DNA from: Lachnospiraceae bacterium
GTDB taxonomy: Bacteria > Bacillota > Clostridia > Lachnospirales > Lachnospiraceae
Reading direction: 5' to 3'
Length of the DNA: 64,000 bases
Assembly: GCA_900769115.1 (NCBI GenBank)
Contig: CAAGFJ010000044.1
Location: 7,140-71,139, forward strand
Part shown: in pieces, positions 4,213 to 53,115 of the stretch
How the letters are laid out: each line of letters starts with the position of its first letter
Position numbering within the stretch: the first letter of the stretch is position 1
The notes under the pieces: model-generated
The model's database searches: none
What the model was told of the DNA's origin: nothing
The model's input: only the letters and a program-made list of their open reading frames with translations
Made by a program: the position numbers and the translations under genes

Positions 4213-5073
4213 ATGGCAAGAACATATAAGCTTAAGGGACATGAGACATTTATATTAAGGGAAGGCTGGCTGACCAAAGGCTTACAGGCAGTTATAGATG
4301 ATCCGATGGTCTTTGCGGAGAATCACGGTGCAGATGCGCTTGGTGTTGGTACGAACATGGCAAAGGCAATCCGTTACTGGATGAAGGCGGCGGGAATTCT
4401 GCCGGATCGGACCGGTAAGGAGAGCTGCCTGACGGAGCTTGGACAGTTGTTGTATGAATATGATCCTTATATGGAAGATCCCTTTTCTTTATGGCTGGTG
4501 CATCTGGGCATTGCCAGTAACGAGACAGGGGCAACGTCCTGGTATCTGTTCTTTCATAAGATGGAAGAATCGTTTACAAAGGAAGAATTAGTGGAGGAGA
4601 TGACGGGCTGGCTGCTTGCATATACAACGGAGGATAAGTTGTCGGCACGTTCGGTAAGAGATGACTGCAATGCATTGATCGGCATGTATTATGCAGAAAG
4701 GGACCGCAATTATGATCCGGAGGACAAGAAGATCAGTCCGTTTGCAATGCTTGGTCTGCTCCAAAAGACGGGAGACGGCTATCAGAAGTCGCAGCCAGAC
4801 CGGAAATGGCTGCACCGGGATGTAGTCTTATACTGCATGATCCGGATGTTGGGTGCCGATTGGGAGAGCGTGTCGATTGACGATCTGATGACCGGTAACT
4901 GCAGTCCGGGCAGGCTGTTGAATCTAAGCCGTACAACGCTCAATGCATATCTGGATGAATTAGATAATGCAGAATGGATCACAGTGAACCGGACGGCAGG
5001 GTTGGACATGGTGTATCGCGCGAGATCATTTACACCAGAGGAATTAATACAGGAATATTATACACATCGTTAG
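4213..5073 (+). CDS. sspB: DUF4007-family protein (SspB-like)
   Basis: N-terminal KLKGHETFILREGWLTKG matches the GHETF..R.GWL signature I associate with DUF4007. 286 aa. Sits between the PAPS-reductase and large ATPase genes. Confidence 0.6.
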   Translation: MARTYKLKGHETFILREGWLTKGLQAVIDDPMVFAENHGADALGVGTNMAKAIRYWMKAAGILPDRTGKESCLTELGQLLYEYDPYMEDPFSLWLVHLGIASNETGATSWYLFFHKMEESFTKEELVEEMTGWLLAYTTEDKLSARSVRDDCNALIGMYYAERDRNYDPEDKKISPFAMLGLLQKTGDGYQKSQPDRKWLHRDVVLYCMIRMLGADWESVSIDDLMTGNCSPGRLLNLSRTTLNAYLDELDNAEWITVNRTAGLDMVYRARSFTPEELIQEYYTHR

Positions 5074-5084
5074 AGGGAGAGCAT

Positions 5085-8744: not shown

Positions 8745-8771
8745 GATGCAATCCGATAGGCGGTGATGTAG

Positions 8772-9926: not shown

Positions 9927-9953
9927 TAAGGAGAAAACGAAGGAGGAATCATT

Positions 9954-12245
9954 ATGGATTTAAAGGGAGCAGAGATTCGTAACATTATTGATTTGTGCAA
10001 GGATATTGGTGGGAAAGGAGAGGTTCCGCTATGCATTAATATTCCTTATTATCAGCGTCCTTATAAGTGGACGGAAGATCAGGTTGGCAATTTAATATCT
10101 GACTTTTATAAGAATAAGGCAGAAAATAAGGTAGAGGATAAGAAGGATAATGAGGCGGCAAAGTATTTTGTGGGATCAGTTGTGCTGGTCAAGAACGCAA
10201 GGGGAACAGATAGACATGATGTGATTGACGGACAGCAGAGATTAACGACGGTATTTTTGATGAATTATTTGCGTTTTCTATTGTTACGTTCATATATTCA
10301 AGAATTGTTAAGCGCGGGAAGAATTATAAGGGAGAGTGTATTGACGGATTTTGCACAAAGCTACGGGCAGTTATTTGGGCAAAAACATATGAATGCAATT
10401 AATCAGGTTAATGAGACAATTTTGGATGAAATGGAGACAATTACAGATAAAGATAAGGATCCTTGGGAATCTGTGTATAAGCATTTGTTACAACAATATG
10501 AGACAGCAGTATCATTGCCAACGAAAGATTTGTCAGATATGCGGCAATATTATTCGCAATATATTACAAGTCTATCTGGTTTTTTATCTCAAGACGAATT
10601 AGCATTGCGTTATAGTAGGGAAACATTTAATAAGAACTTAAAAGATGCATTGTCAAGGATTGTGGTAATTGTGTCAAAGGATAAAAATCCAGAAATTCAT
10701 GTAGATTATGATGTAAAGAAGGAAACCTGTCTGTCAAGCTATATTGAAGCAGTCAAATGTCAATTTACCTGTGTGTATGACAATGTGGTAAATGATGCAA
10801 AGGATTCATTGGATATGGTAAAGAAAATGATTGATGGCATTTCTGAAATGATTAATAATATTAATTTTTGTATGATTATGACTGGAAATGAAAGAGATGC
10901 CTATACGCTTTTTGAGGTGTTAAATGATCGTGCGCTTAAGATTGAAGATTTAGATCTGATTAAGAATCTTTACTATAAAGAATACTGTACCAAATCGAAT
11001 GATGACGATAACTACATAGATGCCAGAATACAGGAGCTAGACGAAATATGGGGAGATAAGGTATTTTCAAGAGATTTGCCGGATGCCAAGATCAAATTGA
11101 TCTCTTATCTGGGGACCATTTATCTGACTGCAGACGAAGATGTGTTTATTAATAAGGTTGAGAAATATCGGGAGATATTAGAGAAGAAGTATTTTGACTG
11201 TCACTACCATAAACAGACCAATCCTTATACATATGATAAGGTACTACGGGATGTCTGCATTTATCAAATGGTGAAAATTATAATTGGTGTATTCGATCTA
11301 CCCGTGAACAATGCAGCAGCAGAGGCAATTAAGGCAGAATGTGACATGGAGAAATCTATTACCTATAAGACGTTCCATTTGTTGAATGCGCTGAAGTTGC
11401 AGGGCGTAATGCCGGCTCTTGTAAATCTAATCATTAAGAAATATTTTATGTATTGTGAAGCGAAACAGCAGGAAGTGACAATGGAGGAATTTGAACAGTA
11501 TGTTTTAAAGATTGCAAAGGATAAGAATCATGAAAATGAAGATTTTCAAGATATTCATGTATGGTCACATAAGCTTTGGAAAATCGCATTGTATGCGGAT
11601 GGATATAAGATTCCAAGGGAAGTAGCTAAGAATATTGTTGCACGGGTATATGTGGATAAGTATGATCTGGATTCGTACGAGATTAAAAATGATCTGATTG
11701 AGGAGGCACAAGTGCAATTCAAGAACTGGACTTCAAATTGGATGTATAGTAAACCTGTTGAAGATTTGAAAATTAAGATACTACTGATTAATTTATTCCG
11801 GATGGAAAAGGTAGGCGAGACTTTAAAAACATGTTCGACAACGTATAGTTTTAAGACAGAACGATTACATTTGGATCATCTGGAAGCGGATAAGTATGAT
11901 AAGGTAAATGAGGAAAAATATTTTAAACCGAGTGATCCGAATGAGGAACGGGAAAAGTATACAAATGGTCTTGGTAATTTTATGATCTTAGACTATGAAA
12001 ATAATAATGAAAAAGATAACAAGCCATTATCAGACGGTTTAGAATATTATAATAATATGCGTCCAGGTCATTGGATGATTCAGGAGATAAGAGATATGCT
12101 GAATGATGATCATTATTCACAGATCAAGATGGGGAGTTATCGTGTGCCAACAGAAGCATTTTTCAATGAACGAAAAAGCAGATTGCAGGGTTATTTTATG
12201 TCTTTGTTGAATGGTAAATTGGATGAAGAGGAATTGGCTTTGTAG
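9954..12245 (+). CDS. sspE: DUF262 (ParB/DGQQR NTPase-like) + DUF1524 (His-Me finger nuclease) protein, SspE/GmrSD-like effector
   Basis: IPYYQRPYKW and DGQQRLTT at the N-terminus. LHLDHLEAD ... GNFMILDYENNNEKDNKP at the C-terminus. AGGAGG RBS before ATG 9954. Markedly AT-richer than the upstream genes. Confidence 0.65.
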   Translation: MDLKGAEIRNIIDLCKDIGGKGEVPLCINIPYYQRPYKWTEDQVGNLISDFYKNKAENKVEDKKDNEAAKYFVGSVVLVKNARGTDRHDVIDGQQRLTTVFLMNYLRFLLLRSYIQELLSAGRIIRESVLTDFAQSYGQLFGQKHMNAINQVNETILDEMETITDKDKDPWESVYKHLLQQYETAVSLPTKDLSDMRQYYSQYITSLSGFLSQDELALRYSRETFNKNLKDALSRIVVIVSKDKNPEIHVDYDVKKETCLSSYIEAVKCQFTCVYDNVVNDAKDSLDMVKKMIDGISEMINNINFCMIMTGNERDAYTLFEVLNDRALKIEDLDLIKNLYYKEYCTKSNDDDNYIDARIQELDEIWGDKVFSRDLPDAKIKLISYLGTIYLTADEDVFINKVEKYREILEKKYFDCHYHKQTNPYTYDKVLRDVCIYQMVKIIIGVFDLPVNNAAAEAIKAECDMEKSITYKTFHLLNALKLQGVMPALVNLIIKKYFMYCEAKQQEVTMEEFEQYVLKIAKDKNHENEDFQDIHVWSHKLWKIALYADGYKIPREVAKNIVARVYVDKYDLDSYEIKNDLIEEAQVQFKNWTSNWMYSKPVEDLKIKILLINLFRMEKVGETLKTCSTTYSFKTERLHLDHLEADKYDKVNEEKYFKPSDPNEEREKYTNGLGNFMILDYENNNEKDNKPLSDGLEYYNNMRPGHWMIQEIRDMLNDDHYSQIKMGSYRVPTEAFFNERKSRLQGYFMSLLNGKLDEEELAL

Positions 12246-12260
12246 AATTTTAGCTGCACT

Positions 12261-12305
12261 GCACTCAATGTTATTTACCTGTTATTTAGCACTCAATGTT
12301 ATTTA
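12261..12305. repeat. Two direct copies of GCACTCAATGTTATTTA
   Basis: Copies at 12261-12277 and 12289-12305, identical, 28-nt period. Confidence 0.85.
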
Positions 12306-12394
12306 GGTCGGAAAAAGTGTATATTTTATATTAAAACAGGTCGGAAAAAATGTATAAAACTATGTTGAATAGGTCGGAAAAAATGTGTTATACT
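12305..12394. repeat. Three phased direct repeats AGGTCGGAAAAA(A/G)TGT(A/G)T, the last abutting an extended -10
   Basis: Copies start at 12305, 12338 and 12371, an exact 33-nt period. TGtTATACT sits at 12386-12394, 28 nt upstream of ATG 12423. Confidence 0.85.
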
Positions 12395-12422
12395 ATAAAT
12401 AACATGGAAAGAGGGTGTTGGT

Positions 12423-13712
12423 ATGCAGCGGTTTGCTATGGATCAATTGTTACGTTGGAAAGATAAGGATAATCGAAAACCATTAGTTATTATGGGTGCA
12501 AGACAGGTTGGTAAGACCTGGTTAATGAAGGAATTTGGCAGGACCTGTTATAAGAAGGTGGCATACATTTCTTTTTATAATAACAGTCGTATGGACCAAG
12601 TGTTTCAGATGGATTTTGATGTGGAACGAATTCTTATGAATCTTAATATCGAAGCGGGTGTAACGATTACACCAGAGGATACACTTGTTATATTGGATGA
12701 GATACAGAATTCGCCGAAAGCATTAGAATCACTAAAATATTTCTGTGAAGAAGCACCACAATATCATATAGTGGCAGCAGGGTCACTGCTTGGAGTGGCA
12801 ATTCATGAAGGAGTGTCCTATCCGGTAGGTAAAGTTGATCTGTTAGATTTGTATCCTCTTAATTTCAGAGAATTTCTTTGTGCAATGGAAGAAAATGCTT
12901 TGTCAGATGCTCTGGCAACGAAGGATTATACGATTATTGATAATTTCTCAGAAAAATATCTATTTTGGATGAAGAACTATTATTATGTAGGCGGCATGCC
13001 GGGGGTAGTTGAGGAATTCCGGATGCACAAGGATTATAATGAGGTGCGCCAGATTCAGAGTGATATTGTTCGGCAGTATGAGGGAGATTTTGGAAAACAT
13101 ATTGATGCTAAGACATTGCCAAGAATTAGGATGGTATGGGATTCTATTCCAATACAGCTTGCAAAAGAGAATAAGAAATTCTTCTTTGGACAGATTAAAA
13201 AGGGTGCTCGTAGCAGTGATTATGAAATTGCCATCCAGTGGCTGGTTGATTGCGGTTTAATATATAAAGTAAATCGTGTAAACGAACCGCATATGCCACT
13301 CAAGGCATATAAGAGCATGAATGCCTATAAGTTGTTTCTGTTGGATGTAGGATTGTTAGGGGCATTGAGTGAATTGACTGCAGAATCCATTTTGGAAGGA
13401 AATGATATTTTTGTCGAGTTTAAAGGGGCATTGACAGAACAATATGTTTTACAACAACTAATCTCGGATACAGAATATACGCCGTATTATTTTGGTACAG
13501 AGAAATCGACATTTGAACAGGACTTTTTAATTCAAAAAGGAAAGAATGTTATTCCAATTGAAGTGAAGGCAGAAGGAAATACTCGATCCCAAAGTTTGAA
13601 AGTATATTGCGATAAATATCACCCGGAGAAAGCAGTTCGATTTTCTACTTTGAATTATATGGATCAAGGATGGATGGTCAATATACCGTTGTATGCAGTG
13701 TGCAATTTGTAA
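12423..13712 (+). CDS. AAA-family ATPase with DUF4143-type C-terminal region
   Basis: Walker A GARQVGKTW and Walker B LVILDEIQN. 429 aa, the typical size and architecture of AAA_14/DUF4143 proteins. Confidence 0.8.
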   Translation: MQRFAMDQLLRWKDKDNRKPLVIMGARQVGKTWLMKEFGRTCYKKVAYISFYNNSRMDQVFQMDFDVERILMNLNIEAGVTITPEDTLVILDEIQNSPKALESLKYFCEEAPQYHIVAAGSLLGVAIHEGVSYPVGKVDLLDLYPLNFREFLCAMEENALSDALATKDYTIIDNFSEKYLFWMKNYYYVGGMPGVVEEFRMHKDYNEVRQIQSDIVRQYEGDFGKHIDAKTLPRIRMVWDSIPIQLAKENKKFFFGQIKKGARSSDYEIAIQWLVDCGLIYKVNRVNEPHMPLKAYKSMNAYKLFLLDVGLLGALSELTAESILEGNDIFVEFKGALTEQYVLQQLISDTEYTPYYFGTEKSTFEQDFLIQKGKNVIPIEVKAEGNTRSQSLKVYCDKYHPEKAVRFSTLNYMDQGWMVNIPLYAVCNL

Positions 13713-22340: not shown

Positions 22341-24155
22341 TTATTTAATCTTCACATAGGCAGAAGAGATATAGCCGTTATAGGTCTTGCCATTTTTATT
22401 GAAACGAACCTTGTACCAGGTAATGCCGCCTCTTTTCTTGGAGGATAACACAGTAACTACTTTGCCTTTATTTAATCTTGTCAGGCGTTTGGAAAGAACA
22501 GAACGGGATTTGCGTACATTTACTCTGGAGGTTTTGATCTGTCCTTTCTTTCCGGTCTTTACCTGATATCCGGGAACATAGCCTTTGACAGAACCATGCG
22601 AGACATAATACCATCTGGTACCGTTATCGTCATAGGTTCCGTAAATGATCTGTAACGGATCATTTTTCTTCGGAGCTGCCACAACAGAGGCATCAATGGA
22701 CTTGTCTGCATACAGATTCACACGATATTTTGGCAGAGCCATCTTTGTCGGATTCGGCTTTGTATAAGAAGATACAACCGGGGAGTAGTCACTGTAATTT
22801 GTGCCACCGCCGCTGTTTTTCATATACATTCGAATCTTATAATAGTAACATTCTGAAGAAGAAAGACCGCTGTTTTTGAAGCTTGTTGTATTCCTGCTTG
22901 AAATGGTCGCAACCTTCTTGTAAGAGCCATTTGCGGAGGATGCCCGGTAGATCTCATAGCCGGATGCGGAATTGTGTTTGTCCCAGCTTAATGTAATCGC
23001 GCTCTTAGAACGGGCTGCGATCGACAGAGAAGTCATTGCTTCCGGTACAATATTAAATGTAATGTAACGGGTGCCGGTGATGCCATTTAACCCGGTGATT
23101 GTTGCTTTTGCGGTTCCGATATCCGTATTGTATTCGTAGGTCACACTATAATCGGTTCCGGCGGTGAGAACTTTATCTTTCATAGTAACGGTAAATGCCG
23201 GGGTGATCGGACTTCCGGTGTAGATCTGATCCGGAATCGGAGTAATCGTAGCACTGGCAAGGTTGTCACCGGCAACATTATAATAGAAATTCATGTCTAC
23301 CTTGGTAGGAATACCGGATACCGTTCCCTGACTGGAATATTGCCAATAAGTAAAGGTTCCATTATAGGAGGTATTGGTTGTGTAGTTTGCTAACCAGATG
23401 GGATAGCTGTTACTGATTGTTGCAGCATTCAGGTGATTATTCAGCATATCCGGGTTGGCATATACCATTGGAGTATATCCAGCGGCTGCAATCTTGTTAC
23501 AGAAAGCAAGACATACATTAGTGGCAGCCTCTTTTGACAAGTTTGCATTCTTTAAACGTCCACCATTGGAAGAACCGGATGCGAACTCATAATCTAAGAT
23601 CAAAGGCATTGTAACATGATAGGTACCGATACGGTCTAGAATGAACTGCGCTTCCTCTTCGGCTTCGGCAGGGGTAATGGCCTGTGAGAATACATAGATG
23701 CCGACATTCACACCGGCAGCAATAGCGTTCTGCATATTTGCCGCATAGGTGGAGTCATTGTACATGCCGCCGGATGCTCCCCAGCCCCGGCCGCCTACAC
23801 GGATAAATGCAAAATCAATGCCGGAGGCTTTCACGGTTGTCCAGTCAATGCTTTTTTGGTATTCGCTCACATCAACACCATTTATGATAGGAATTCCTGT
23901 AAACTGGTCCTGATGGGTATAATAGGCATTGGTATAAGGGCTATAGGTTTGAAATCCACCATAGCGCCTGATCAAGGTTGAATCGGATGTATCCGGGTTG
24001 GCATCCTCATAGAATTCCTTTGGAATATCTATTCCGGATAAACGTCCGGCTCCGGGATCATCCTTTGCGGCAGCCTGTACACAGAATGGAGTGCATGCGG
24101 CAAAGAATGTAAGTGATAATAATAATGTGTGAGCTAGAAAATTCTTTTTCATCAA
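22341..24155 (-). CDS. Secreted GH25 muramidase (lysozyme) with Ig/FN3-like and C-terminal SH3-like repeats
   Basis: Signal peptide. GIDVSEYQKSIDWTTVKASGIDFAFIRVG GH25 signature. FN3-like SLSIAARSKSAITLSWDK. C-terminal SH3b-like repeats. Confidence 0.85.
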   Translation of the reverse strand: MMKKNFLAHTLLLSLTFFAACTPFCVQAAAKDDPGAGRLSGIDIPKEFYEDANPDTSDSTLIRRYGGFQTYSPYTNAYYTHQDQFTGIPIINGVDVSEYQKSIDWTTVKASGIDFAFIRVGGRGWGASGGMYNDSTYAANMQNAIAAGVNVGIYVFSQAITPAEAEEEAQFILDRIGTYHVTMPLILDYEFASGSSNGGRLKNANLSKEAATNVCLAFCNKIAAAGYTPMVYANPDMLNNHLNAATISNSYPIWLANYTTNTSYNGTFTYWQYSSQGTVSGIPTKVDMNFYYNVAGDNLASATITPIPDQIYTGSPITPAFTVTMKDKVLTAGTDYSVTYEYNTDIGTAKATITGLNGITGTRYITFNIVPEAMTSLSIAARSKSAITLSWDKHNSASGYEIYRASSANGSYKKVATISSRNTTSFKNSGLSSSECYYYKIRMYMKNSGGGTNYSDYSPVVSSYTKPNPTKMALPKYRVNLYADKSIDASVVAAPKKNDPLQIIYGTYDDNGTRWYYVSHGSVKGYVPGYQVKTGKKGQIKTSRVNVRKSRSVLSKRLTRLNKGKVVTVLSSKKRGGITWYKVRFNKNGKTYNGYISSAYVKIK

Positions 24156-24442
24156 TATAATCTTACTGTAAGATACAGCTTTCTCCTTTCGTTTCGTAAT
24201 TTCCGGCAGTCATGAAATAACCGCTTTCCTGTAATCAATATTCACATACGTTTTATCATTATAAAACAAGTTGACATAAAATTCTATACAATAATGTAAC
24301 AGATTTGTAAATTCTATAAAGAAAGTATGAAATCGTAGTGAAAAGAATATAAAGTGAAAAAATATTTACCTAAAAAAACCTAATAAAATCAAGGGGTTGC
24401 GGAGTTTTGTAAAATTTTTTTAAAAAAAGTTGAAAAAAGTAC

Positions 24443-24471
24443 TTGCAATTTGTTTCAGCATCATATATAAT
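24443..24471 (+). promoter_or_regulatory. Near-consensus promoter of tRNA-Lys
   Basis: TTGCAA 24443-24448, 17-nt spacer, TATAAT 24466-24471, preceded by an AT-rich UP-like tract. Confidence 0.6.
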
Positions 24472-24511
24472 CGTCATTGTTGCTGAGGTAAGCAGCAAGA
24501 ACTTAATACAC

Positions 24512-24584
24512 GGGCCGCTAGCTCATTTGGTAGAGCACCTGACTCTTAATCAGGGTGTGCGGGGTTCGAGCCCCCGGCGGCCCA
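24512..24584 (+). tRNA. tRNA-Lys (anticodon CTT)
   Basis: Cloverleaf folded by hand. Acceptor GGGCCGC/GCGGCCC, D stem GCTC/GAGC, anticodon stem CCTGA/TCAGG with loop CTCTTAA (CTT at 24545-24547), T arm CGGGG-TTCGAGC-CCCCG, discriminator A. CCA is not encoded. Confidence 0.93.
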
Positions 24585-24660
24585 CTCACAAAGGAATCGA
24601 TTTGATGTCATAGAACATTGGGTTGGTTCTTTTTCATTATACGGCAAAGGAATTCATACC

Positions 24661-26187
24661 ATGGCAGAGAAGTACATTATGATTCACGATATTCTAAGTG
24701 AACATAAGGATCGAATGTTGAACTTAAAAAAGTATTATCCATTTTTCGTGTTATGCGATACGACATTTTCCCAGTATAAGGAAGGTAAGTATTCGAATCT
24801 GGACATGGGTTATATTACCATGGCAACTTTGCGTTTCCTGATCAATGAGAACAATTTCCATGAAAGTGAAATTACATATGAGCAGTACGAGGCATTCTTA
24901 TTAGAGATTCTGCACCGTGAGTTTGGATTGGCAGAACCGGAAGAGGAAGAACGGGAGCTTTGCGGCTATATTTTTGATAAGATCAAGAATGATGGTAAGG
25001 CGTTCACCTTTCCGTACTTCGATCCGGAAGAGAAGAAGAAAAAGACAAGCCGGGTGAAGCTCATCGACAGCCGGATCGTGGATGGTGTCGTATTATATCA
25101 TGTGACAACGGATGGGATTGAATTCTATCTGGATACGAAGGAGATCAAGGAGGAGAGTAATATTTCCGTGCAACAGCTCCTGCTTGAGAAGATGATCCGG
25201 TCCGAGAACTTTGCAGGCGGTATTGAGGTTGTTAAGAGAATCAATAATGAAGTAGGGAAGCTTTCCTTAAAGAAGAAGGAAGTGTTAGACCTGTTAGGAT
25301 ATGATGTGTTTGCCGGAGCGAAAGCCAGTGAGGAATATATGGCAACGGTGGCAAAGTGGTTTGAAGAAGAATCGAAACTGTTTGAGAAGAACCGTGCATT
25401 GATCGATAAGGCATACAGTAAAGCGAACTCGGAATCCGGTTCCGTTGTGTTAAAAGAGATACATAAGTTAGATACGGAGCTTAAGAAGACGATCATCCGG
25501 CATGGAGAACTGATCCGGGAGACGATCGAACTGCAGAATATTGCGGATGAGATGATCGGACGTGCGAAGCTTCGCAAACTTCGTCCGGTATTCCAGTTCC
25601 GGGATGCTTTACAGAAGGCAATGAAGCAGGATAGGGCAGACCGGCTGGGGATGTTGATGGCACCACTTTTCATGCCAAAGCTTACGAAGTCATTTGCTGT
25701 GGAATCGGTCGACCGCATGTTAGAGAGCAAAGCAGACAATTCTGATTATGGAGAGAAGATCGAGAAGAAACAGGTTGATGCAGATTATGTATATGAGGAT
25801 GAGGTAGAGGAAGAACGAATTGGCGAGAACTTCGGACGACTGTTTGAAGAATTGTTAGAGCAGCTTTGGAAACATGGTAAGACGACGCTGCCGGAACTGA
25901 TGGCAATTTATGAGATCAAGTTTGGAAAAGAGATCTATCGCAATGGAGATGTCTATTCGTTTCTGGTGCATTTAGCCCAGAAGAACCGTTATGAGTTCAA
26001 GCATATGCAGGATAAGCAGGACACCTTCTTAGAGGGCATTGTGATGAACCGGCTGAGTGTGGAGAAGAAGGACAAGTATGGGAATATGGTATTTGAGATC
26101 TTCTTTGATGTTGGCAATATTCTGAACTTCGGCGACACGAAGGATGAGTCATTCAGTATTACGGACATGCGGTTCGAGACGGTGTAG
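24661..26187 (+). CDS. Hypothetical 508-aa protein; putative kleisin-like (MukF/JetA-position) subunit of the SMC-like module
   Basis: First gene after the tRNA. Layout is an N-terminal globular part, a long helical region, an acidic linker (DADYVYEDEVEEERIGE) and a small C-terminal domain. The assignment rests on operon position, size and this layout only. Confidence 0.35.
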   Translation: MAEKYIMIHDILSEHKDRMLNLKKYYPFFVLCDTTFSQYKEGKYSNLDMGYITMATLRFLINENNFHESEITYEQYEAFLLEILHREFGLAEPEEEERELCGYIFDKIKNDGKAFTFPYFDPEEKKKKTSRVKLIDSRIVDGVVLYHVTTDGIEFYLDTKEIKEESNISVQQLLLEKMIRSENFAGGIEVVKRINNEVGKLSLKKKEVLDLLGYDVFAGAKASEEYMATVAKWFEEESKLFEKNRALIDKAYSKANSESGSVVLKEIHKLDTELKKTIIRHGELIRETIELQNIADEMIGRAKLRKLRPVFQFRDALQKAMKQDRADRLGMLMAPLFMPKLTKSFAVESVDRMLESKADNSDYGEKIEKKQVDADYVYEDEVEEERIGENFGRLFEELLEQLWKHGKTTLPELMAIYEIKFGKEIYRNGDVYSFLVHLAQKNRYEFKHMQDKQDTFLEGIVMNRLSVEKKDKYGNMVFEIFFDVGNILNFGDTKDESFSITDMRFETV

Positions 26188-26223
26188 GATCATTTGACTA
26201 GGGGATTGGTTATAATATAGTAG

Positions 26224-26253
26224 TTGCCTAATCAGCTGGTTCGGTCGTATAAT
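26224..26253 (+). promoter_or_regulatory. Candidate autonomous promoter of the MNT-HEPN pair
   Basis: TTGCCT 26224-26229, 18-nt spacer, TATAAT 26248-26253, within the 113-nt gap after 26187. Confidence 0.45.
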
Positions 26254-26300
26254 GAAAAGAAAAGATTGGCTATGTAATGAGTAAGATGGAGGTGATTGTT

Positions 26301-26642
26301 ATGTGTACACAAGCGCAGTTAAATGTTGTTTCTCAATTGATGGTTGCATGCTATCGCAAAGTGTATGGCATAGATCGAATTAAATCCATTATTCTTTATG
26401 GATCCTATGCAAGAGGAGACTATGATTCAGAGTCGGATATCGATATTACAGCAGTAGTTTCGGGAAATAGAGAAGAATTGCAGGAGAAGCTGAAGTTAGT
26501 GTGGGATGAGTCAGCAGAGATTGGGTTAGAGAATGATGTAGTTGTTTCTCCGACAGTAATTCCGGAAGACGAATACGAACAATATCGGAATGTATTACCA
26601 TATTATAGAAATATCAGTATGGAGGGCAGAAAGATTGGATGA
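26301..26642 (+). CDS. Minimal nucleotidyltransferase (MNT) domain protein, antitoxin-type
   Basis: LYGSYARGDYDSESDIDI (GS-X9-DxD) motif. Start moved to ATG 26301, 8 nt after GGAGG (26288-26292). Confidence 0.8.
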   Translation: MCTQAQLNVVSQLMVACYRKVYGIDRIKSIILYGSYARGDYDSESDIDITAVVSGNREELQEKLKLVWDESAEIGLENDVVVSPTVIPEDEYEQYRNVLPYYRNISMEGRKIG

Positions 26643-27027
26643 TTTGATTCAATACCGTTTAGCGATGGCGGAGGAGAAGTTAATATCGGCAAAGATACTT
26701 ATGGACGCTGGACAGAATAAAGATTCTGTGGGGCGTTCTTATTATGCTATTTTTTCTGCCGTAAGAGCGGTATTAGCCCGTGATGAAGTGGATTTTTCGA
26801 AACACGCGGGAGTGATTGCATATTTTCAAAAGAATTACATCAAAACAGGAATTTTTGATAAAAAGTATTCGAAGTATTTACAAGGCGCATTTCAGATCCG
26901 TAACAACTGTGATTATAATGATTTCTATATTGTGTCTAAGAATGATACACAGGAACAATATGATCATGCAGTAGAGATGTTAGAAGTGATTAAGAGGTAT
27001 TTACAATCGGATACAGAAGAAAGATAA
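26635..27027 (+). CDS. HEPN-domain protein, toxin-type partner of the MNT
   Basis: RSYYAIFSAVRAVL helix and FQIRNNCDYND (R-X4-Y/H position). Probable TTG start at 26635, 8 nt after GGAGGG, overlapping the MNT stop by 8 nt. Alternative ATG at 26665. Confidence 0.7.
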   Translation: MDDLIQYRLAMAEEKLISAKILMDAGQNKDSVGRSYYAIFSAVRAVLARDEVDFSKHAGVIAYFQKNYIKTGIFDKKYSKYLQGAFQIRNNCDYNDFYIVSKNDTQEQYDHAVEMLEVIKRYLQSDTEER

Positions 27028-27047
27028 ATATAAGGATATAAGATACT

Positions 27048-27767
27048 ATGGAAATGAAGAATTTAGAGAAAGCAACGGACATCTATGCGAAACTGATCAC
27101 GGGAGAAGAGATCAAGCGTGGCGGAGTAAATGGCAGTCTGTATGACGATTATTACGGCAATGCCGAGGTGTATGAGATTGTTGGTGTCTTGCTTAAGAAG
27201 TTGAATCTGAATATATATGAATACAAGGACAGTCTGTTCCTGTCAGCAGGAGAAGGGAACCGGATTTTCGGTTATACGAATGAAGAATTGAAGCGTGCGA
27301 TGAATCTGCGGTATAATAAGGAATTGTATCTGTGTTATTTCATTATGTATGAGATCCTGTTGTCGTTCTATTCTGATTCGGCATCGTATCAGTTCAAGGA
27401 ATATGTCCGGTTAGAGGATGTTTGTGAGGATGTGACGAAGGCACTGGCAGTTTACACGAAGGATATCGCCATATATGACACCGACAATGAGCAGGAAGAA
27501 AGCTTCCGCACAATCGCCCTGTTATGGGATGAGCTTCCGGCAAGCAGTAATGAGAACCAGGATGAGATTCGTGCATCAAGGGCATCGAAAGTAAGTTTCG
27601 TGAAGCTGACATTTAACTTTCTCGTTGGCGAGAAGTTGTTTGTAGAGGTCAATAAGCGTTATTATCCGACCGACCGATTCCAGGCAATCGTAGAACACTA
27701 TTTTGAAGACTATCGTGGACAGATCTATGATGCGTTATCGTCAGAACCGGATGCATCAGAGGAATAA
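27048..27767 (+). CDS. Hypothetical 239-aa protein; putative KITE-like (MukE/JetB-position) subunit
   Basis: Size and position between the 508-aa gene and the SMC-like ATPase mirror mukE/jetB. Acidic C-terminus. No motif-level support. Confidence 0.3.
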   Translation: MEMKNLEKATDIYAKLITGEEIKRGGVNGSLYDDYYGNAEVYEIVGVLLKKLNLNIYEYKDSLFLSAGEGNRIFGYTNEELKRAMNLRYNKELYLCYFIMYEILLSFYSDSASYQFKEYVRLEDVCEDVTKALAVYTKDIAIYDTDNEQEESFRTIALLWDELPASSNENQDEIRASRASKVSFVKLTFNFLVGEKLFVEVNKRYYPTDRFQAIVEHYFEDYRGQIYDALSSEPDASEE

Positions 27768-27844
27768 CAGATTGCAAGATTTCGTCCTGGCATATGCACA
27801 TCATTGTGCAGGGAACGGACACTATATACAAGGAAAGGAAAACC

Positions 27845-30800
27845 ATGCCGAATATTAATCGAATTCGAGTCAACAATGTAAAATATAACTTTGGAACGCA
27901 AGGGTATGATGATTTTTCCATGCGTATGTATGGAAAGAATACACTGTACGATCTTGCCAACGGTGGAGGTAAGAGTGTGCTCATGCTCTTATTGTTACAG
28001 AACCTGATCCCGAATTGTACCTTAGATGAGAAGCAGCCGATCGAGAAGCTGTTCCGTAACGGTGGAGGGAATACGACGATTCATTCTTTAGTAGAGTGGA
28101 AGTTGGATGATAAGGATATCAAAGAGGGATTTCGTTATATGACAACGGGTTTCTGTGCCAGAAAGGCGAAGGACAGCGATGCAGACCAGTTAGCAATACC
28201 CGGAGCAGAGCAGAGTACGTCGGAGCATACCGGGGCGAAGGACAGTGCATCGATTGAATACTTCAATTACTGTATTTTCTACCGGGATTATAATGATAAC
28301 GATATCGTGAATCTCCCGTTGCAAAACAGCAAGGAACGGATCACCTATAGTGGACTTAAGAATTATCTGAAGGATCTGGCAAGACGGAACCTGAATCTTA
28401 AGGTGCATATTTTTGAACGCAAAGGGGAGTACCAGCGTTTTATCAGCCAGTATGGATTGTTTGAAAGCCAGTGGGAGATTATCCGGGGTATTAACAAGAC
28501 AGAGGGACATGTGCGTACTTATTTTGAGACGCATTATAAGACGACCCGTAAAGTAGTGGAAGATCTGCTGATCGAGGAGATCATTGAGAAGGCTTTTTTG
28601 GTTAAGACTGAACAAAATGATGTCAATGAGGATATGGCAAAGACACTGCTTGACATTAAGGACAAGTTAGTAGAACTTTCCCGTAAGAAGAGTGAGATCG
28701 CCAATTATGACAAAGAGACAGAGTTGATGCATCTGTTAGAAGGCCGTGTATCATCTTTTCTTTCTTTATATGAAGCGAAAGATAAAGTGGCAGGAACGCT
28801 TGCGGATATCTATGTGACAGGGGAACATTTATTAGAGCAGGGCGAGTCGGAGATTGCTGCAAGAGAAGAAAAGAAAGCGGCATATGATAAGCGGCAGCTA
28901 TTTGAGAGAAAACGGATTGAAGGATTGAAGATCATCCGGGATCAGTATGACCTGATGAAGGTGCAGGAGAATGGAGAGACTCTTTTGCGTTATGTGGAGC
29001 AGGCAGAGCAGGAGTTGTCGGCAGCCAAGCAGGAGTTAGATCTCAAAGAAAGTATGAATGACTATCTGCGGTATCTGCAGGATAAGGCACAGATGGATGA
29101 AAACCAGGCGATGATTGATGCCTCGATGGATTCGAATACGGATCAGCTTGCCCGGCTTCATCAGTATGCTTATACAAAGAAGCAGTTAGATGACCGGAAA
29201 CTTGCCGATATCCGGAAACAGTTAGAACAGCGTAAGAAGGAGTTTGTAGCATTGCAGGAGGAGGTAACCCGCCTTACGCATGTAGCAGAGGAAGGAAATG
29301 TTGCCTTGGCGGTTGCAAGAAGTCACAAGGAGCATTTTGAACAGGAATATCACAAGTATATGGAAGAGATTGCAGTGGTGCGAAAAGATATCTCAATCTT
29401 AGTGTTGAGCGATCTCGCAGATCTGGAACGTACCCTGCAGGAAGAGGAGCAGGAGCTTGTTGAGAAGAAGGCGGCATTGGATGCCGGTTATATGGAAGAT
29501 CTTGCAGAAGTCAGTGCGTTAGAAAAGCAACAATATATGGAACAGGAAACGCTAGAGCATGCGCGGGTACAGTTGACGACAGCAGAAGAGAACCACAAAG
29601 AATATGTAGAGAATCAGGAACGCCTTAAGAAGATGACGCAGATATATGGGGTCAGAGACATGGGTGATCTGTATGAGACGATCAAGGAACGCGCATTTCA
29701 GCAGAAGGTGGCGGTGGCCGAGCTTGGAAAGAAGATTGCAGCCGGTAACCGGCATTTAGAGCAGGTGCAGGAAGGACGTATTCTGGAAGAGTCAGAGGCA
29801 GTTACCAGGGTAAAGGATTATCTTGAAAGCCGTCATGGGGACTTTGCACTTTCTGGTGTGGACTATCTGTCTGCATTGCCGAAGGCGAACCGGGAGGAAT
29901 TATTACAATGCTTCCCGATGCTTCCGTATGGCGTTGTGACTAATCGGTTCAAAGAAGTGGAAGAGGATGAACGGATTGATACGTTAGAGCTTGGCAATCA
30001 GGCAGTTATGATCTACGACCAGAAAGTATTAGAGACACCGCATCTGCCGGAAAAGATGGATGGCGTGAAATTACTTGCCAAGAATCCGCAGACCTTTGTG
30101 GAAGAAGATGCACTCGCAATGGAAGCAAACCGACTTCAGAAGCAGCTGGCGGAGCTTAAAGAAGAGATGGAACGTGCCAGAGAATTAGATGCGACTTATG
30201 AGGAAGATCTGGATTACACGGCAAAGCTTACCGATGCCGTATTCTTAAATGCTGAGCGGGATGTACAGGAACTCCGGGAACAGATATTAGAGCATGAGCG
30301 CACTTTAGAGACACTTAAAAAGAATAAAGAACAGGTTCAGACGCATTGTGAACAGCAAAAAGCAGAGGTTGCAGCATGTGAGGAGACGCTTCATTCCAAT
30401 CAGAAAGAACAACTGAAGCTCGCAGGAATCCGCGCGAAGAGTGATCTGGCGGAAGAGACGAAGACGCAGTTGGACTTCTATGAGGCGGAGGTGAAGCGTT
30501 TATCGAATGACACTACGAATGCAGACAGCAGGCTGGAGAATGCCAAACTCAAAGTATCAGAGTTAGAGGGACAGATCCATCACATGGAGTCGCAGATTGC
30601 AGAGGTGACAAGTGATTGGGAGACGCTCTATAAGGATTATTATGTAGAAGACAATTTAACTGTGGTTAATATTCCGGAGGAACAGTTAAAGGCAGAGTTT
30701 CTGGCTGCAAAGGCGGTAGTAGAACAGGCAACGATCGTATTAGAGGATAAGAAGAAGCTGATTGCAGCACTTCGCGAGAGCATGGAACGGGGACTGAAGC

Positions 30801-32320
30801 TGATACGTCGGCGTGGTATATCGGTGGAACAGATTGCAGCACTACAGCAGACGGAAGGCTTACATCCGGTGGAGGAAGAACTGCTTAACCGGATGAGTGC
30901 ACAGTTATCACAGATCTCGGTGCGTTGTGATCAGCTGCGTGCAGATTATAAGAAGAAAGAACAGGAAAGCTCCCGTTTGGAAGGACGAATCGAGCAGGCG
31001 ACACAGGCATTGAAGGATCGTTTTGGACAGGATGCCTTTGCAGAACTGAATCTGATGTCTGCCGAAGGAGTGCCTTCTGTTACAAGAGAGGATGCCGTGC
31101 AGGCAATTGCCGAAGGAGACCGGCTGCTTGCCTCATTACAGGAAGAGATCCGTGCATTTGATAAGGAATATAAGCAGTACGTGAAGAATCACAGTGTGAT
31201 TATTGACCTTTACAAAGATGTGAAGCGTATTGTGGAAAGCGAAGAGTTAGAAGTGACAGGAGCGAGCCTTTTGTCAGAGAATCAGAACCGGATCCGTGAG
31301 ATCTTTGAGGAGAGTCTGCTTTCCTACGATAAGAGTAACAAAGCGCTTGCCCGTGCCAGACAGGAATTGCTTAACTATAAGACACAGACAGCGAATACGT
31401 TCTACACAATGGGCGCTTATGAGCTGTCGGATTCCGTGAAGGAAGATATTGCGATACCGGAGACTTATGAGGATGCAAAGACACTGCTTGCCAATATCCG
31501 GGAGATGATCTCGTATATTGCCTTAGAGAAAGAACGGGTTGAGCAGGGAATCGAGGACATGGAGGCGATCAAGAATAACTTTGAGAATCAGTGTATTGAA
31601 CGCTGTAAGGATGTCCGGACAGAGCTTGACAAGCTGCCAAAGCTGTCCCGTATCCAGTTGGATGGGGAGATGATCCAGATGGTGAACCTGACTATTCCGT
31701 ACGTGAAGGATGAATTTATCAAACAGCGTATGTCTGATTACATTGATGAGGTAGTAAATGGTGCCGATCAGTTCCAGGATAACAATGACCGGATCAAATA
31801 TATGAAGAACCGGCTATTGTTAAAGAAGCTGTTTAGTGTTATGGTAACAGATATGAATGCAATCCGGCTGAAGCTTTATAAGAGGGAGCGTATGAAAGAA
31901 CAGAGCCGTTATCTGCGGTATGAGGAAGCGGTTGGAAGTACCGGGCAATCACAGGGTATCTATATTCAGTTCCTGGTATCGATCATCAATTATATCTCGG
32001 GCATGTATGCACCGGAAGTGGAAGCGAATGAACTGAAGAAGGTCATCTTTATTGATAATCCGTTTGGTGCGGCGAAGGATATCTATATCTGGGAGCCGAT
32101 CTTTGCCCTGCTTAAGACCAATAATGTACAGCTGATCGTTCCGGCACGTGGAGCGACACCAGCGATCACGAACCGGTTTGATGTCAATTACATCTTAGGG
32201 CAGCAGCTTGTGAATGGCAGACAGCAGACGGTTGTGGTAGATTACCGCAGTCAGGTAGCGCAGGATGAGGTAGAGTACCAGAACTTAGAGTATAGTCAGG
32301 GAACATTTGACTTCATATAA
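27845..32320 (+). CDS. SMC/MukB/JetC-like ABC ATPase with long antiparallel coiled coil, 1491 aa
   Basis: Walker A LANGGGKSV (27956-27979). Two coiled-coil-type E/K/Q/L-rich stretches of ~440 and ~550 aa flank a central non-coiled segment (LPKANREELLQCFPMLPYGVVTNRF...). Signature-like GSTGQSQG (31934-31957). Walker B VIFIDN (32042-32059). Start at ATG 27845. Confidence 0.7.
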   Translation: MPNINRIRVNNVKYNFGTQGYDDFSMRMYGKNTLYDLANGGGKSVLMLLLLQNLIPNCTLDEKQPIEKLFRNGGGNTTIHSLVEWKLDDKDIKEGFRYMTTGFCARKAKDSDADQLAIPGAEQSTSEHTGAKDSASIEYFNYCIFYRDYNDNDIVNLPLQNSKERITYSGLKNYLKDLARRNLNLKVHIFERKGEYQRFISQYGLFESQWEIIRGINKTEGHVRTYFETHYKTTRKVVEDLLIEEIIEKAFLVKTEQNDVNEDMAKTLLDIKDKLVELSRKKSEIANYDKETELMHLLEGRVSSFLSLYEAKDKVAGTLADIYVTGEHLLEQGESEIAAREEKKAAYDKRQLFERKRIEGLKIIRDQYDLMKVQENGETLLRYVEQAEQELSAAKQELDLKESMNDYLRYLQDKAQMDENQAMIDASMDSNTDQLARLHQYAYTKKQLDDRKLADIRKQLEQRKKEFVALQEEVTRLTHVAEEGNVALAVARSHKEHFEQEYHKYMEEIAVVRKDISILVLSDLADLERTLQEEEQELVEKKAALDAGYMEDLAEVSALEKQQYMEQETLEHARVQLTTAEENHKEYVENQERLKKMTQIYGVRDMGDLYETIKERAFQQKVAVAELGKKIAAGNRHLEQVQEGRILEESEAVTRVKDYLESRHGDFALSGVDYLSALPKANREELLQCFPMLPYGVVTNRFKEVEEDERIDTLELGNQAVMIYDQKVLETPHLPEKMDGVKLLAKNPQTFVEEDALAMEANRLQKQLAELKEEMERARELDATYEEDLDYTAKLTDAVFLNAERDVQELREQILEHERTLETLKKNKEQVQTHCEQQKAEVAACEETLHSNQKEQLKLAGIRAKSDLAEETKTQLDFYEAEVKRLSNDTTNADSRLENAKLKVSELEGQIHHMESQIAEVTSDWETLYKDYYVEDNLTVVNIPEEQLKAEFLAAKAVVEQATIVLEDKKKLIAALRESMERGLKLIRRRGISVEQIAALQQTEGLHPVEEELLNRMSAQLSQISVRCDQLRADYKKKEQESSRLEGRIEQATQALKDRFGQDAFAELNLMSAEGVPSVTREDAVQAIAEGDRLLASLQEEIRAFDKEYKQYVKNHSVIIDLYKDVKRIVESEELEVTGASLLSENQNRIREIFEESLLSYDKSNKALARARQELLNYKTQTANTFYTMGAYELSDSVKEDIAIPETYEDAKTLLANIREMISYIALEKERVEQGIEDMEAIKNNFENQCIERCKDVRTELDKLPKLSRIQLDGEMIQMVNLTIPYVKDEFIKQRMSDYIDEVVNGADQFQDNNDRIKYMKNRLLLKKLFSVMVTDMNAIRLKLYKRERMKEQSRYLRYEEAVGSTGQSQGIYIQFLVSIINYISGMYAPEVEANELKKVIFIDNPFGAAKDIYIWEPIFALLKTNNVQLIVPARGATPAITNRFDVNYILGQQLVNGRQQTVVVDYRSQVAQDEVEYQNLEYSQGTFDFI

Positions 32321-32442
32321 GCGGATGGGCTATCGGATCTTGTGTGTAATGCGTTATTAAAAATAGTGAGCAAGATGTGAAGCGTTTTGCGAGCTTTAAC
32401 AGGATGAGTTTCATCCATATACAAGGTAGGAGGAATGTGTGT

Positions 32443-33318
32443 ATGCAGGTAGTATTGGAAAATGATCAATTGAGGGTAGCAATCAACTATTTTGGCGCAG
32501 AGCTTGCCAGTATGGTGAAGAAGGAAACGGGGGAAGAATATATCTGGAATGCGGATGAGAAGTTCTGGAAACGCAGTGCTCCGGTATTGTTTCCTTTTGT
32601 CGGAAGCCTGAAGAATAAGGAATATAAGTACGATGGAAAGGTATATCCGATGGGGCAACACGGATTTGCCAGAGATATGGAATTTGCGCTTGTGTTCCAG
32701 ACAGAGGATGAGGTATGGTTTTCGCTGACAGCAGATGAACAGACCTATGAGAAGTATCCGTTTACCTTTACCTTAGAGATCGGTTACAAGTTAGTAGGCA
32801 ATGAGCTGCAGGTTATCTGGAATGTGAGCAATGAAGACGATAAGAAGATGTATTTTTCAATCGGCGGGCATCCGGCATTTATGTGTCCACTCGGTGGCAG
32901 GGGCAAACAGACCGATTACTATATTGCTTTTGACAGTGACAAAGATCTGACATATTCGAAAATAAACGGGAATGGACTTGTCTATAAGAAGGATAATGTG
33001 CTGGCAACCAATGGTGGTATGATGAAGATCGATGCACATTTATTTGATGAGGATGCATTAGTGATCGAGGGAGATCAGGTGCATGAAATCAGTCTGTGTG
33101 ATCCGGAACAGAAACCGTATGTGACCGTGATATGTGATCAGCCATTATTCGGATTATGGTCCCCGGCAAAGAAGAATGCACCATTTGTGTGTATTGAGCC
33201 ATGGTCCGGAAGATGTGATGCAGAGGAATTCGAGGGTACGCTTGAAGAAAGAGAATACGGACATGAATTGGATGTAAATGAGAGCTTTGTGATGGCGTAT
33301 ACGATTGTTGTGGCATAA
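32443..33318 (+). CDS. Aldose 1-epimerase-family protein (LacX/galactose mutarotase-like)
   Basis: APVLFPFVGSLKN..YKYDGKVYPMGQHGFAR and GGHPAF motifs. Start moved to ATG 32443 after AGGAGG. Confidence 0.8.
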   Translation: MQVVLENDQLRVAINYFGAELASMVKKETGEEYIWNADEKFWKRSAPVLFPFVGSLKNKEYKYDGKVYPMGQHGFARDMEFALVFQTEDEVWFSLTADEQTYEKYPFTFTLEIGYKLVGNELQVIWNVSNEDDKKMYFSIGGHPAFMCPLGGRGKQTDYYIAFDSDKDLTYSKINGNGLVYKKDNVLATNGGMMKIDAHLFDEDALVIEGDQVHEISLCDPEQKPYVTVICDQPLFGLWSPAKKNAPFVCIEPWSGRCDAEEFEGTLEEREYGHELDVNESFVMAYTIVVA

Positions 33319-33466: not shown

Positions 33467-33727
33467 ATGCCAAAGAAAAAGGAACTGCTTGAGAAACTAT
33501 GCAGGAAACCAAGTCCTAAGAATTTTACAGTGCGGGATTTGGATTTACTGATGAGTAAATGTGGTTGTGAGAAGTTTTCAGGAGGAAGGGGATCTGGTAT
33601 TGGTTACGTTCATGAGGAATCAAAGAGGATCTTGCAATTTGATCAACCTCATCCAGGAAAAGAATTATATAGATATCAGATCAGTAAGACAATAGATTAT
33701 TTAAAGGATATAGGCGAATTGGATTGA
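33467..33727 (+). CDS. hicA: HicA-family mRNA interferase toxin
   Basis: 86 aa. GGRGSGIGYVHEES...FDQPHPGKELYRYQI resembles the HicA (YcfA-like) fold signature. Followed by hicB after 16 nt. Confidence 0.75.
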   Translation: MPKKKELLEKLCRKPSPKNFTVRDLDLLMSKCGCEKFSGGRGSGIGYVHEESKRILQFDQPHPGKELYRYQISKTIDYLKDIGELD

Positions 33728-33743
33728 AAAGGAGGGATGATGT

Positions 33744-34085
33744 ATGACTTCAATGATGGAATATAAGGGTTATCACGCATTTATTGAATATGATGCGGAG
33801 GATAATATTTTTGTTGGAGAGGTGTTTGGAGTTGCAGATTCATTGAATTTTCATGGAACAAATGTTGAAGAATTAAGACAAATGTTTGAACAGAGTATTG
33901 ATAATTATCTTGATTTATGTGCAAAGATTGGTAAGAATCCGGAAAAGGAATTTAAGGGGACATTTAATGTTCGGATACCACCGGAAATGCACAAGAAAGT
34001 ATCATTAGAGGCAGCAAAACAGAACATAACACTGAATCAATATATTGTAAGGGCGATTGATCAATCTATTAAAATGACCGGCTGA
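33744..34085 (+). CDS. hicB: HicB-family antitoxin with C-terminal ribbon-helix-helix
   Basis: YKGYHAFIEYDAEDNIFVGEVFGVADSLNFHGTNVEEL (HicB N-domain) and FNVRIPPEMHKKVSLEAAKQNITLNQYIVRAI (RHH). Confidence 0.8.
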   Translation: MTSMMEYKGYHAFIEYDAEDNIFVGEVFGVADSLNFHGTNVEELRQMFEQSIDNYLDLCAKIGKNPEKEFKGTFNVRIPPEMHKKVSLEAAKQNITLNQYIVRAIDQSIKMTG

Positions 34086-36343: not shown

Positions 36344-37351
36344 GTGGAGGGTTATTTGCGAAACGAGACACACAGATTAAAGCTGCTATATATAGCAAAG
36401 CTGTTATATGAGGAGACGGATGAACAACATATGCTGACTGCAGATCACATTGTGAAACGTCTGCAGGATAAGGGGATTGTCTGCGAACGGAAGAGTGTCT
36501 ATCGGGATCTGGAGACACTTTCAGCATTTGGCATGGATATCGTGAGGGAATCAAGAGGTGCCTATCTGGCATCAAGAATGTTTGAATTGCCGGAACTGAA
36601 GCTGCTAGTGGATGCGGTACAGTCGTCGAAGTTCATTACGGAGGCGAAGTCTCGGGAACTGATCGCAAAGCTGTCGCATCTGGCGAATCAGCAGGAGGCG
36701 GCAAAGCTGACCAATCAGGTGGTAGTGCACAACCGGGTGAAAGCAATGAATGAGAGCATCTACTATAATGTAGATACGATCCATGAGGCGATCCGGGATA
36801 ATAAGCAGATCACATTTACTTATTATATGTGGAATGAAGATAAGCAGCTGGTGCCGAGGAGAGACGGTGCTAAGTATATACTTTCTCCGTGGTTCTTTGA
36901 GTGGGACAATGATAAGTATTATATGGTTGGATATGAGGAATATTCTGCACAGATGCGGCATTACCGGGTTGATAAGATGAAGTCGATCGAAGTAAATGAT
37001 ACGGCGAGACTGGGACGGGATATATATGAGGCTATTGATCTCAGTGCATATGGAAGCCGGACATTTGGCATGTTTGGTGGAGAGCCTACGACGGTACAGC
37101 TGTCTGTGGATACATCACTTGCAGGGGCGATGATCGATCATTTTGGAACGGATGTATGGATGCACAAGACGCTGCATGAGACGGAGGATGTAAGATTATC
37201 CGTTGTGGTAGATACGGTTGTCAGTGACCGCTTTTTTGGCTGGATCTTTGGTTTTGGAAATAAGATAGAGATCGTGGGGCCGGACTGGGTGCGGCAGAGG
37301 TATGAGCAGATGCTTCACAATGTATTGGATGGTATGAACCAGGATGTTTGA
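36344..37351 (+). CDS. HTH + WYL-domain transcriptional regulator
   Basis: N-terminal wHTH (LLYIAKLLYEETDEQHMLTADHIVKRL) and a WYL region (ITFTYYMWNEDKQLVPRRDGAKYILSPWFFEWDNDKYYMVGY). The start codon (GTG 36344 or TTG 36356) is uncertain. Confidence 0.75.
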   Translation: MEGYLRNETHRLKLLYIAKLLYEETDEQHMLTADHIVKRLQDKGIVCERKSVYRDLETLSAFGMDIVRESRGAYLASRMFELPELKLLVDAVQSSKFITEAKSRELIAKLSHLANQQEAAKLTNQVVVHNRVKAMNESIYYNVDTIHEAIRDNKQITFTYYMWNEDKQLVPRRDGAKYILSPWFFEWDNDKYYMVGYEEYSAQMRHYRVDKMKSIEVNDTARLGRDIYEAIDLSAYGSRTFGMFGGEPTTVQLSVDTSLAGAMIDHFGTDVWMHKTLHETEDVRLSVVVDTVVSDRFFGWIFGFGNKIEIVGPDWVRQRYEQMLHNVLDGMNQDV

Positions 37352-53114: not shown

Positions 53115-53115
53115 A

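Follow-up and report, generated by a model that had tools for sequence, protein, structure and literature searches.

The stretch of DNA analysed here (64,000 nucleotides of Lachnospiraceae bacterium assembly GCA_900769115.1, contig CAAGFJ010000044.1, positions 7,140 to 71,139 of the forward strand; hereafter, the window) contains at 24661-32320 a chromosomal jet locus, which according to full-length profile matches is the JetABC part of type III Wadjet and thus belongs to an already described family. No gene for the Toprim nuclease JetD is found in the window or around related loci. The locus is probably a vertically inherited, JetD-less type III JetABC that is analogous to MksBEF and acts on DNA without cutting it. 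It is not a new kind of system, since Mks-type complexes lacking a nuclease are already on record and PADLOC and Pfam have models for the three protein families. The literature searched appears not to describe a JetD-less branch of type III that is large, vertically inherited, and placed in core-genome contexts of Lachnospiraceae-type gut bacteria; the search (DUF6063, JetD-less Wadjet, and Wadjet in Lachnospiraceae) gave no paper on this lineage.

Assignment to type III Wadjet

All three proteins are recognised by PADLOC type III models along their full length. Thus, JetA3 (24661-26187, on the forward strand as are all genes of the locus; 508 amino acids, presumed kleisin subunit) aligns by residues 1-507 to positions 1-507 of the 511 of model PDLC00560 (E = 3.7e-217), and JetB3 (27048-27767; 239 amino acids, KITE-like subunit) matches its PADLOC model over the full length (E = 4.3e-103) as well as Pfam DUF6063 (PF19539, E = 3e-46). 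The SMC-like ATPase JetC3 (27845-32320; 1491 amino acids) covers model PDLC00581 from position 1 to 1473 of 1473 with 1884 bits. Pfam has no family for the 508-amino-acid JetA or the 1491-amino-acid JetC, DUF6063 being the sole match among the three jet proteins. An earlier note on this DNA, made from its letters, had recognised an ATPase of SMC type accompanied by two small genes, as in Wadjet/Mks systems, and the JetA3, JetB3, and JetC3 matches bear this out. Its suggestion of an undescribed system, however, has to be given up, because the three proteins match existing type III models full-length and are homologous to those of jetD-containing plasmid operons. The ATPase does not group with a repair family either: PADLOC reports only JetC3, Pfam reports nothing, and the profile comparison with PDB sequences yields no SbcC, Rad50, or RecN.

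Three annotated plasmid operons with the order jetD-jetA-DUF6063(jetB)-jetC were retrieved by tblastn against plasmids, namely those of Pontibacillus sp. ALD_SL1, Clostridium perfringens pJFP838A, and Bacillus mycoides p481. In all three, the annotation calls the jetD product a JetD-domain protein; the Pontibacillus JetD, used as a positive control, matches Pfam JetD_C with E = 7e-8. Between the window proteins and these jetD-linked type III proteins, identity is 22-26% (E from 4e-10 to 6e-17), with 22% for the window JetA versus JetA of the jetD-linked C. perfringens operon (BLASTP E = 3.9e-10). Distant type III systems were obtained through this plasmid tblastn and not through the protein homologue search, which reached close relatives only (at least 56% identity; a single JetA match, at 56%, lies under 60%). 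Alignment profiles of JetA, JetB, and JetC compared with PDB sequences returned coiled-coil or chance matches and no Jet or Muk chain. As for the size of the DUF6063/JetB3 family, it is small, with 228 clusters (50% identity) at E ≤ 1e-3 among 1.84 billion representative proteins. In a 2025 preprint on type II Wadjet, the sole mention of type III is a figure legend giving a B. thuringiensis operon as an example.

Predicted folds of the small subunits

The AlphaFold2 model of JetB3, built from 38 sequences, has a predicted local distance difference test score (pLDDT) of 77 and a predicted template modelling score (pTM) of 0.68. Its top Foldseek PDB entries are 8as8_C (E. coli JetABC), 8dk1_F (P. 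aeruginosa JetABC), 7dg2_A, 3euh_C (MukE-MukF), 5hvq_C, and 6juv_A, and the matches cover JetB, Nse1-Nse3-Nse4, MukE, MAGE-G1/NSE1, and ScpB. Foldseek probability is 0.89-0.99 for the first five, with E of just 4e-3 to 0.15 and template modelling scores of 0.32-0.40. Because every top entry is a KITE-containing SMC complex, the model supports a KITE-like fold for JetB3, in line with the place that the earlier note had assigned to the 239-amino-acid protein.

The JetA3 model comes from a shallow alignment (73-94% identity) and reaches pLDDT 62 and pTM 0.31. It has long helices at residues 182-337, a low-confidence part at 339-372, and only one confident domain, the C-terminal one at 379-508. 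With this low-confidence model, Foldseek places MukF-containing entries only at ranks 11-12 (E about 0.8). In hhalign comparisons, the JetA3 profile gives no signal against E. coli MukF (probability 0.4%), and the JetB3 profile gives none against E. coli MukE.

Absence of JetD

All three canonical type III operons examined have jetD immediately 5' of jetA, so the site to inspect in the window is the tRNA-Lys side. The earlier note had stated that no fourth gene is present. This was judged 3' of jetC, which is the wrong side, but the statement holds as far as jetD is concerned, which is still absent once the upstream side is inspected. The sequence there carries tRNA-Lys (anticodon CTT, 24512-24585, forward strand; predicted by ARAGORN as the sole tRNA in the 64-kb window), followed farther out by an opposite-strand gene for a GH25 lysozyme.

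The search covered the window and 122 related loci with flanks of up to 8-10 kb: 38 genome loci (JetC 39-96% identical to the window), 80 metagenome loci (36-96%), and 4 loci around unlinked jetA (single loci are referred to below by L numbers). PADLOC JetD models have no match among the 82 open reading frames (ORFs) spanning the whole window, and a PADLOC run on 70 flank proteins, chosen to represent the 38 genome loci, has no JetD among the matches listed (25 of 75 families). tblastn with type III JetD finds nothing in the window or in 118 jetC loci. A hidden Markov model (HMM) of three JetD3 sequences, applied with --max to all six frames of the window and the 122 loci (15,628 pieces), has a best E of 0.6, and no jetD pseudogene remnant is visible in this unfiltered search. 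Likewise, there is no jetD beside jetA in genomes with jetA unlinked from jetBC. The lack of an accompanying JetD/MksG nuclease gene, which the earlier note had described for this locus, thus applies to the window and to every related locus; far from homologous loci almost always carrying jetD, about 120 loci have jetABC and none has jetD. The immediate neighbours are identifiable housekeeping genes in every clade. Judging from these sequence comparisons, the lineage is stable, old, and JetD-less, and is not a broken copy.

One clade (L106-L123, e.g., L108:2790-12512), whose JetC is 36% identical to that of the window, has the order dnaX-ybaB-recR-jetA-jetB-jetC, and RecR, which contains a Toprim domain, occupies there the position of the Toprim nuclease JetD in canonical type III operons. 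RecR was considered as a JetD substitute and rejected: it is upstream of jetA in one clade, it belongs to the universal dnaX-ybaB-recR operon, and its position is probably a coincidence.

Inheritance and selection

The jetABC genes are vertically inherited and under strong purifying selection in Lachnospiraceae-type gut Clostridia. The ratio of nonsynonymous to synonymous substitution rates (dN/dS; Nei-Gojobori, window versus closest relatives) equals 0.023-0.030 for jetA, 0.025 for jetB, and 0.045-0.071 for jetC, versus 0.013-0.028 for murT and gatD next to them. Across 23 species, JetA, JetB, and JetC become less identical to their window counterparts as MurT does (Spearman correlation of identities 0.60-0.68, p ≤ 0.003). 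GC content at third codon positions (GC3) is 0.52-0.55 in the jet genes and 0.49-0.52 in murT, gatD, and glpK. The cluster that follows jetC (epimerase, murT, gatD, WYL regulator, and sugar kinase) is found in 24 of the 38 genome loci. Low dN/dS, co-divergence with MurT, matching GC3, and synteny together argue for a retained function.

On the other side, tRNA-Lys lies directly 5' of jetA in 11 of these genome loci, from related species. Because of this conservation, the adjacency is taken as old synteny, and tRNA-Lys was rejected as an integration site, a role that the earlier note had suggested by giving the tRNA prominence in its title. Further clades have a rhomboid protease gene (JetC 45-46% identical to the window) or a fructose-bisphosphate aldolase gene (JetC 44% identical) before jetA. 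The jetC ORF of about 1500 amino acids is intact in all whole-gene loci except L019 and L062, where it is split into two ORFs. In GCA_030533405 and ERZ14208515, jetA is located on a different contig from jetBC and is kept intact there; in some genomes (L040-L043), it is on a separate contig beside a DUF1877 gene, with jetBC still together.

The JetC ATPase

The JetC ORF can be extended to an ATG at 27794 (1508 amino acids), but homologues and the PADLOC model begin at 27845. The motifs and the central segment quoted in the earlier note are all present in the translation: Walker A LANGGGKSV at residues 37-45 (27953-27979), LPKANREELLQCFPMLPYGVV at 678-698, the signature-like GSTGQSQG at 1364-1371 (31934-31957), and Walker B VIFIDN at 1400-1405 (32042-32059). 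The head/arm/central segment/arm/head layout proposed there agrees with both composition and conservation. The arms (about 290-640 and 750-1200) contain 0-6% Pro+Gly and 48-68% EKQLAR and have weak profile matches to tropomyosin, myosin, and chemoreceptor coiled coils, which occur in both arms. Residues 601-750, in contrast, contain 10-12% Pro+Gly. The central non-coiled segment (residues about 641-750, 29765-30094), which includes a conserved core at 651-700, is read as a hinge from its Pro+Gly content. In an alignment of 30 orthologues, the termini are strongly conserved (0.84-0.98 identity) and the arms are the most variable part (0.38-0.68).

Walker A residues G40-S44 and GSTGQSQG are invariant in 30 sequences. 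The Walker B motif deviates from the usual form in that its Asp is followed by Asn-Pro-Phe and not by Glu, and both D1404 and N1405 are invariant in the window lineage. The same hhhhD-N-P-F form is common to all three jetD-linked type III JetC proteins.

Insertions between jetA and jetB

Downstream of tRNA-Lys there are five same-strand ORFs of 508, 121, 145, 239, and 1491/1508 amino acids. The earlier note had counted three genes, of which the ORFs of 508, 239, and 1491 amino acids are confirmed; it had overlooked, however, two further genes between the first two, so the locus is not a plain three-gene module. The 860-nucleotide gap from the jetA stop to the jetB start encodes an MNT-type nucleotidyltransferase (26277-26642, 121 amino acids; Pfam NTP_transf_2, E = 1.9e-10; PADLOC PDC-S09, E = 1.1e-23) and a HEPN-domain protein (26635-27027; Pfam HEPN, E = 5.9e-16), the first and second genes of an inserted toxin-antitoxin-like cassette. 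The HEPN ORF opens at ATG 26590 (145 amino acids, to 27027), but TTG 26635, which follows GGAGG, is the likelier start.

MNT-HEPN is seen in the window and, among the related loci, solely in the nearest ones (L002, L021, and L044-L046), and its GC3 (0.35 for MNT and 0.34 for HEPN) differs from 0.52-0.55 in the jet genes. In L017, the jetA stop and the jetB start are 16 nucleotides apart, the extra DNA of the window being MNT-HEPN. Elsewhere, this junction is filled by a lipoprotein gene, by genes of ABC transporters, or by other DNA of as much as 7.4 kb (L007, L011, L022, L004-L006, L016, and L026); in L007, L011, and L022 the separation is 3.5-7.4 kb, and several loci have no jetA detected beside jetBC. 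Insertion into the jetA-jetB spacer has thus occurred repeatedly. By its composition and distribution, MNT-HEPN is best regarded as a recent, compositionally foreign insertion that is not part of the JetABC machine.

The cassette resembles pairs of the MntA-HepT type, as it consists of adjacent, overlapping NTP_transf_2 and HEPN genes for proteins of about 120-145 amino acids. It differs from them in being unusually sited inside a jet operon and in its HEPN motif. The catalytic motif of HEPN proteins is Rx4-6H; the window protein has QIRNNCDYNDF (R-NNCD-Y) there, with Tyr at the expected His position.

Proposed function and alternative explanations

DNA loading and ATP-driven loop extrusion are established for type I/II JetABC and for MukBEF. 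By analogy with them, the window JetABC would load on DNA and extrude loops with ATP. JetC would dimerise via its central hinge-like segment, its heads would bind ATP through Walker A, the signature, and Walker B, and JetA, acting as the kleisin, would bridge the heads and carry a JetB (KITE) dimer. Without JetD, the captured DNA would stay uncut, and the output would be DNA compaction or organisation. Such a complex might have an accessory part in folding and segregating the chromosome, the role suggested for MksBEF of Pseudomonas aeruginosa, which lacks JetD, or might compact or sequester small circular DNA without destroying it. Chromosome organisation or segregation beside Smc-ScpAB appears, by analogy, to be the most likely role, for which the core-like conservation and the housekeeping neighbours, dnaX-ybaB-recR among them, are indirect support. 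The wider proposal that the nuclease-free type III lineage is a core, vertically inherited DNA organiser beside Smc-ScpAB, or else an Smc5/6-like silencer of circular DNA, is made tentatively, as a possibility that falls a little short of probable.

Several points weigh against a JetD-less complex that organises DNA without cutting it. Loop extrusion is extrapolated from types I and II, and the literature searched contains no biochemical work on type III Wadjet; like loop extrusion, the part of JetA as kleisin and the function in the cell are features that we infer from relatives. The kleisin role of JetA3 is presumed, its model having pLDDT 62. Asn stands at the position of the usual catalytic Glu, so the ATPase cycle of JetC may be unusual. 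The JetD searches span 64 kb here and the flanks of relatives, so jetD or another nuclease may lie far away. The difference in JetD may reflect a loss in this lineage or a gain by the plasmid-borne type III systems. Finally, the surroundings are not entirely free of defence genes: an Ssp phosphorothioate defence cluster lies about 11 kb 5' of jetA.

An ordinary plasmid-restricting Wadjet, with a nuclease (JetD, another Toprim protein, or some other enzyme) that is encoded elsewhere and joins JetABC in trans, is the strongest of the alternatives, though an unlikely one. Subunit genes of this lineage can indeed be unlinked, as jetA is off-contig in GCA_030533405 and ERZ14208515 and at a distance of kilobases from jetB in L007, L011, and L022, and the inspection of this genome covered 64 kb. 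However, JetD is missing from these 64 kb, from the flanks of about 120 loci, and from the surroundings of unlinked jetA, whereas in the three canonical type III operons jetD abuts jetA; core-like conservation and housekeeping neighbours are also atypical of a defence system. Decay, with a type III Wadjet turning into pseudogenes after the loss of jetD, is scarcely credible. It would account for the missing jetD, for the cassette inserted in the operon, and for jetA not being adjacent to jetBC in several loci, but dN/dS of 0.02-0.07 is like that of the adjacent essential cell-wall genes murT and gatD, the long jetC ORFs are intact save in L019 and L062, the ATPase motifs are invariant, and unlinked jetA is retained elsewhere in the genome.

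JetABC could also serve as a DNA sensor for a different effector, e.g., the HEPN RNase of MNT-HEPN or another neighbour. The position of the MNT-HEPN pair inside the operon would fit such a role, and so would a TPR/AAA-like protein of 650-1080 amino acids encoded right after jetC in 33 distant loci (L033, L035, and L090-L123), about 40-150 nucleotides downstream in most of them. This protein contains TPR repeats, has a weak AAA_22 match in one member, and is present whatever lies upstream of the jet genes, in clades whose JetC has 36-40% identity to that of the window; L033 has an ABC-ATPase gene in between. Its gene could be a conserved fourth one in these deep clades. The window and its clade, however, have no homologue of it, and MNT-HEPN is both restricted to the window and five other loci and foreign in GC3. 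In other loci the jetA-jetB slot holds unrelated cargo or nothing (the spacer of 16 nucleotides in L017), and jetABC are the only genes common to all loci. Since no inserted gene is shared across the lineage, an inserted gene as the effector is argued against, and a sensor with a separate effector seems very improbable.

If the reading of the lineage as a core DNA organiser is true, a switch between plasmid defence and chromosome maintenance would have occurred independently for a second time, MukBEF/MksBEF being the first, and a machine of defence may here have become a chromosomal one without nuclease. Wadjet is understood as a plasmid cutter, and its kinship with the chromosome-folding SMC complexes MukBEF and MksBEF is an open evolutionary question. 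The lineage offers a natural, diversified set of type III JetABC complexes that have long been free of JetD, with JetC down to 36% identity, so the question of defence versus chromosome maintenance becomes testable in a second, independent lineage of abundant gut bacteria. We infer that defence censuses probably lack these loci, because finders that require all four jet genes are not expected to report them.

Other features of the window

The module ends on the right with an aldose 1-epimerase gene (32443-33318, forward strand), its conserved right neighbour; the earlier note had named this gene, and Pfam Aldose_epim agrees (E = 3e-28). Between it and murT, there is a HicA-HicB toxin-antitoxin pair (33467-34085), and a HicB-like ORF occurs in just a few relatives (L001, L023, and L044). 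A WYL/WCX-domain regulator gene at 36344-37351 is kept downstream of murT/gatD in many related loci. According to a promoter and terminator scan of 24150-32500, there is no excess over shuffled sequences (12 promoter-like sites versus 17.9 expected).

Among more distant features, the Ssp-type DNA phosphorothioation cluster occupies 2316-13712 and includes BrxP/SspD-like, SspB, SspC, SspA/DndA-like, and SspE/HEC-06-like genes; it is followed by the candidate defence gene PDC-S01. A cluster for exopolysaccharide/capsule biosynthesis at 51708-63455 contains an initiating sugar transferase, an EpsG-like polymerase, a UDP-galactopyranose mutase, and a flippase.

Comparison with known systems

With the type III Wadjet operons of plasmids, the window shares homologous JetA3, JetB3, and JetC3, the same A-B-C order, the same sizes, and the D-N-P-F form of Walker B. 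It differs from them in having no jetD, with 22-26% identity to the jetD-linked proteins, in the toxin-antitoxin cassette that interrupts its operon, and in genomic setting, as its genes are chromosomal, syntenic, and vertically inherited and not plasmid-borne.

The resemblance to MukBEF of E. coli consists in the kleisin-KITE-SMC gene order, with JetA as the presumed kleisin, an SMC protein of about 1490 amino acids, and a predicted JetB3 fold that resembles MukE. In contrast to MukBEF, the JetA3 and JetB3 profiles have no detectable similarity to MukF and MukE, and Walker B of the window JetC lacks Glu.

MksBEF of Pseudomonas aeruginosa, the nuclease-less relative of type I Wadjet, combines an SMC protein, a kleisin, and a KITE protein without a Toprim nuclease, and the window lineage, with JetA as the presumed kleisin, has the same three-subunit composition without MksG/JetD across about 120 loci. 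The window proteins, however, belong to another sequence lineage than the type I families, as Pfam gives DUF6063 only and no Jet or Muk chain of the PDB is matched. The hosts differ as well: the window comes from a Firmicute, and in Firmicutes Smc-ScpAB is the expected chromosome organiser.

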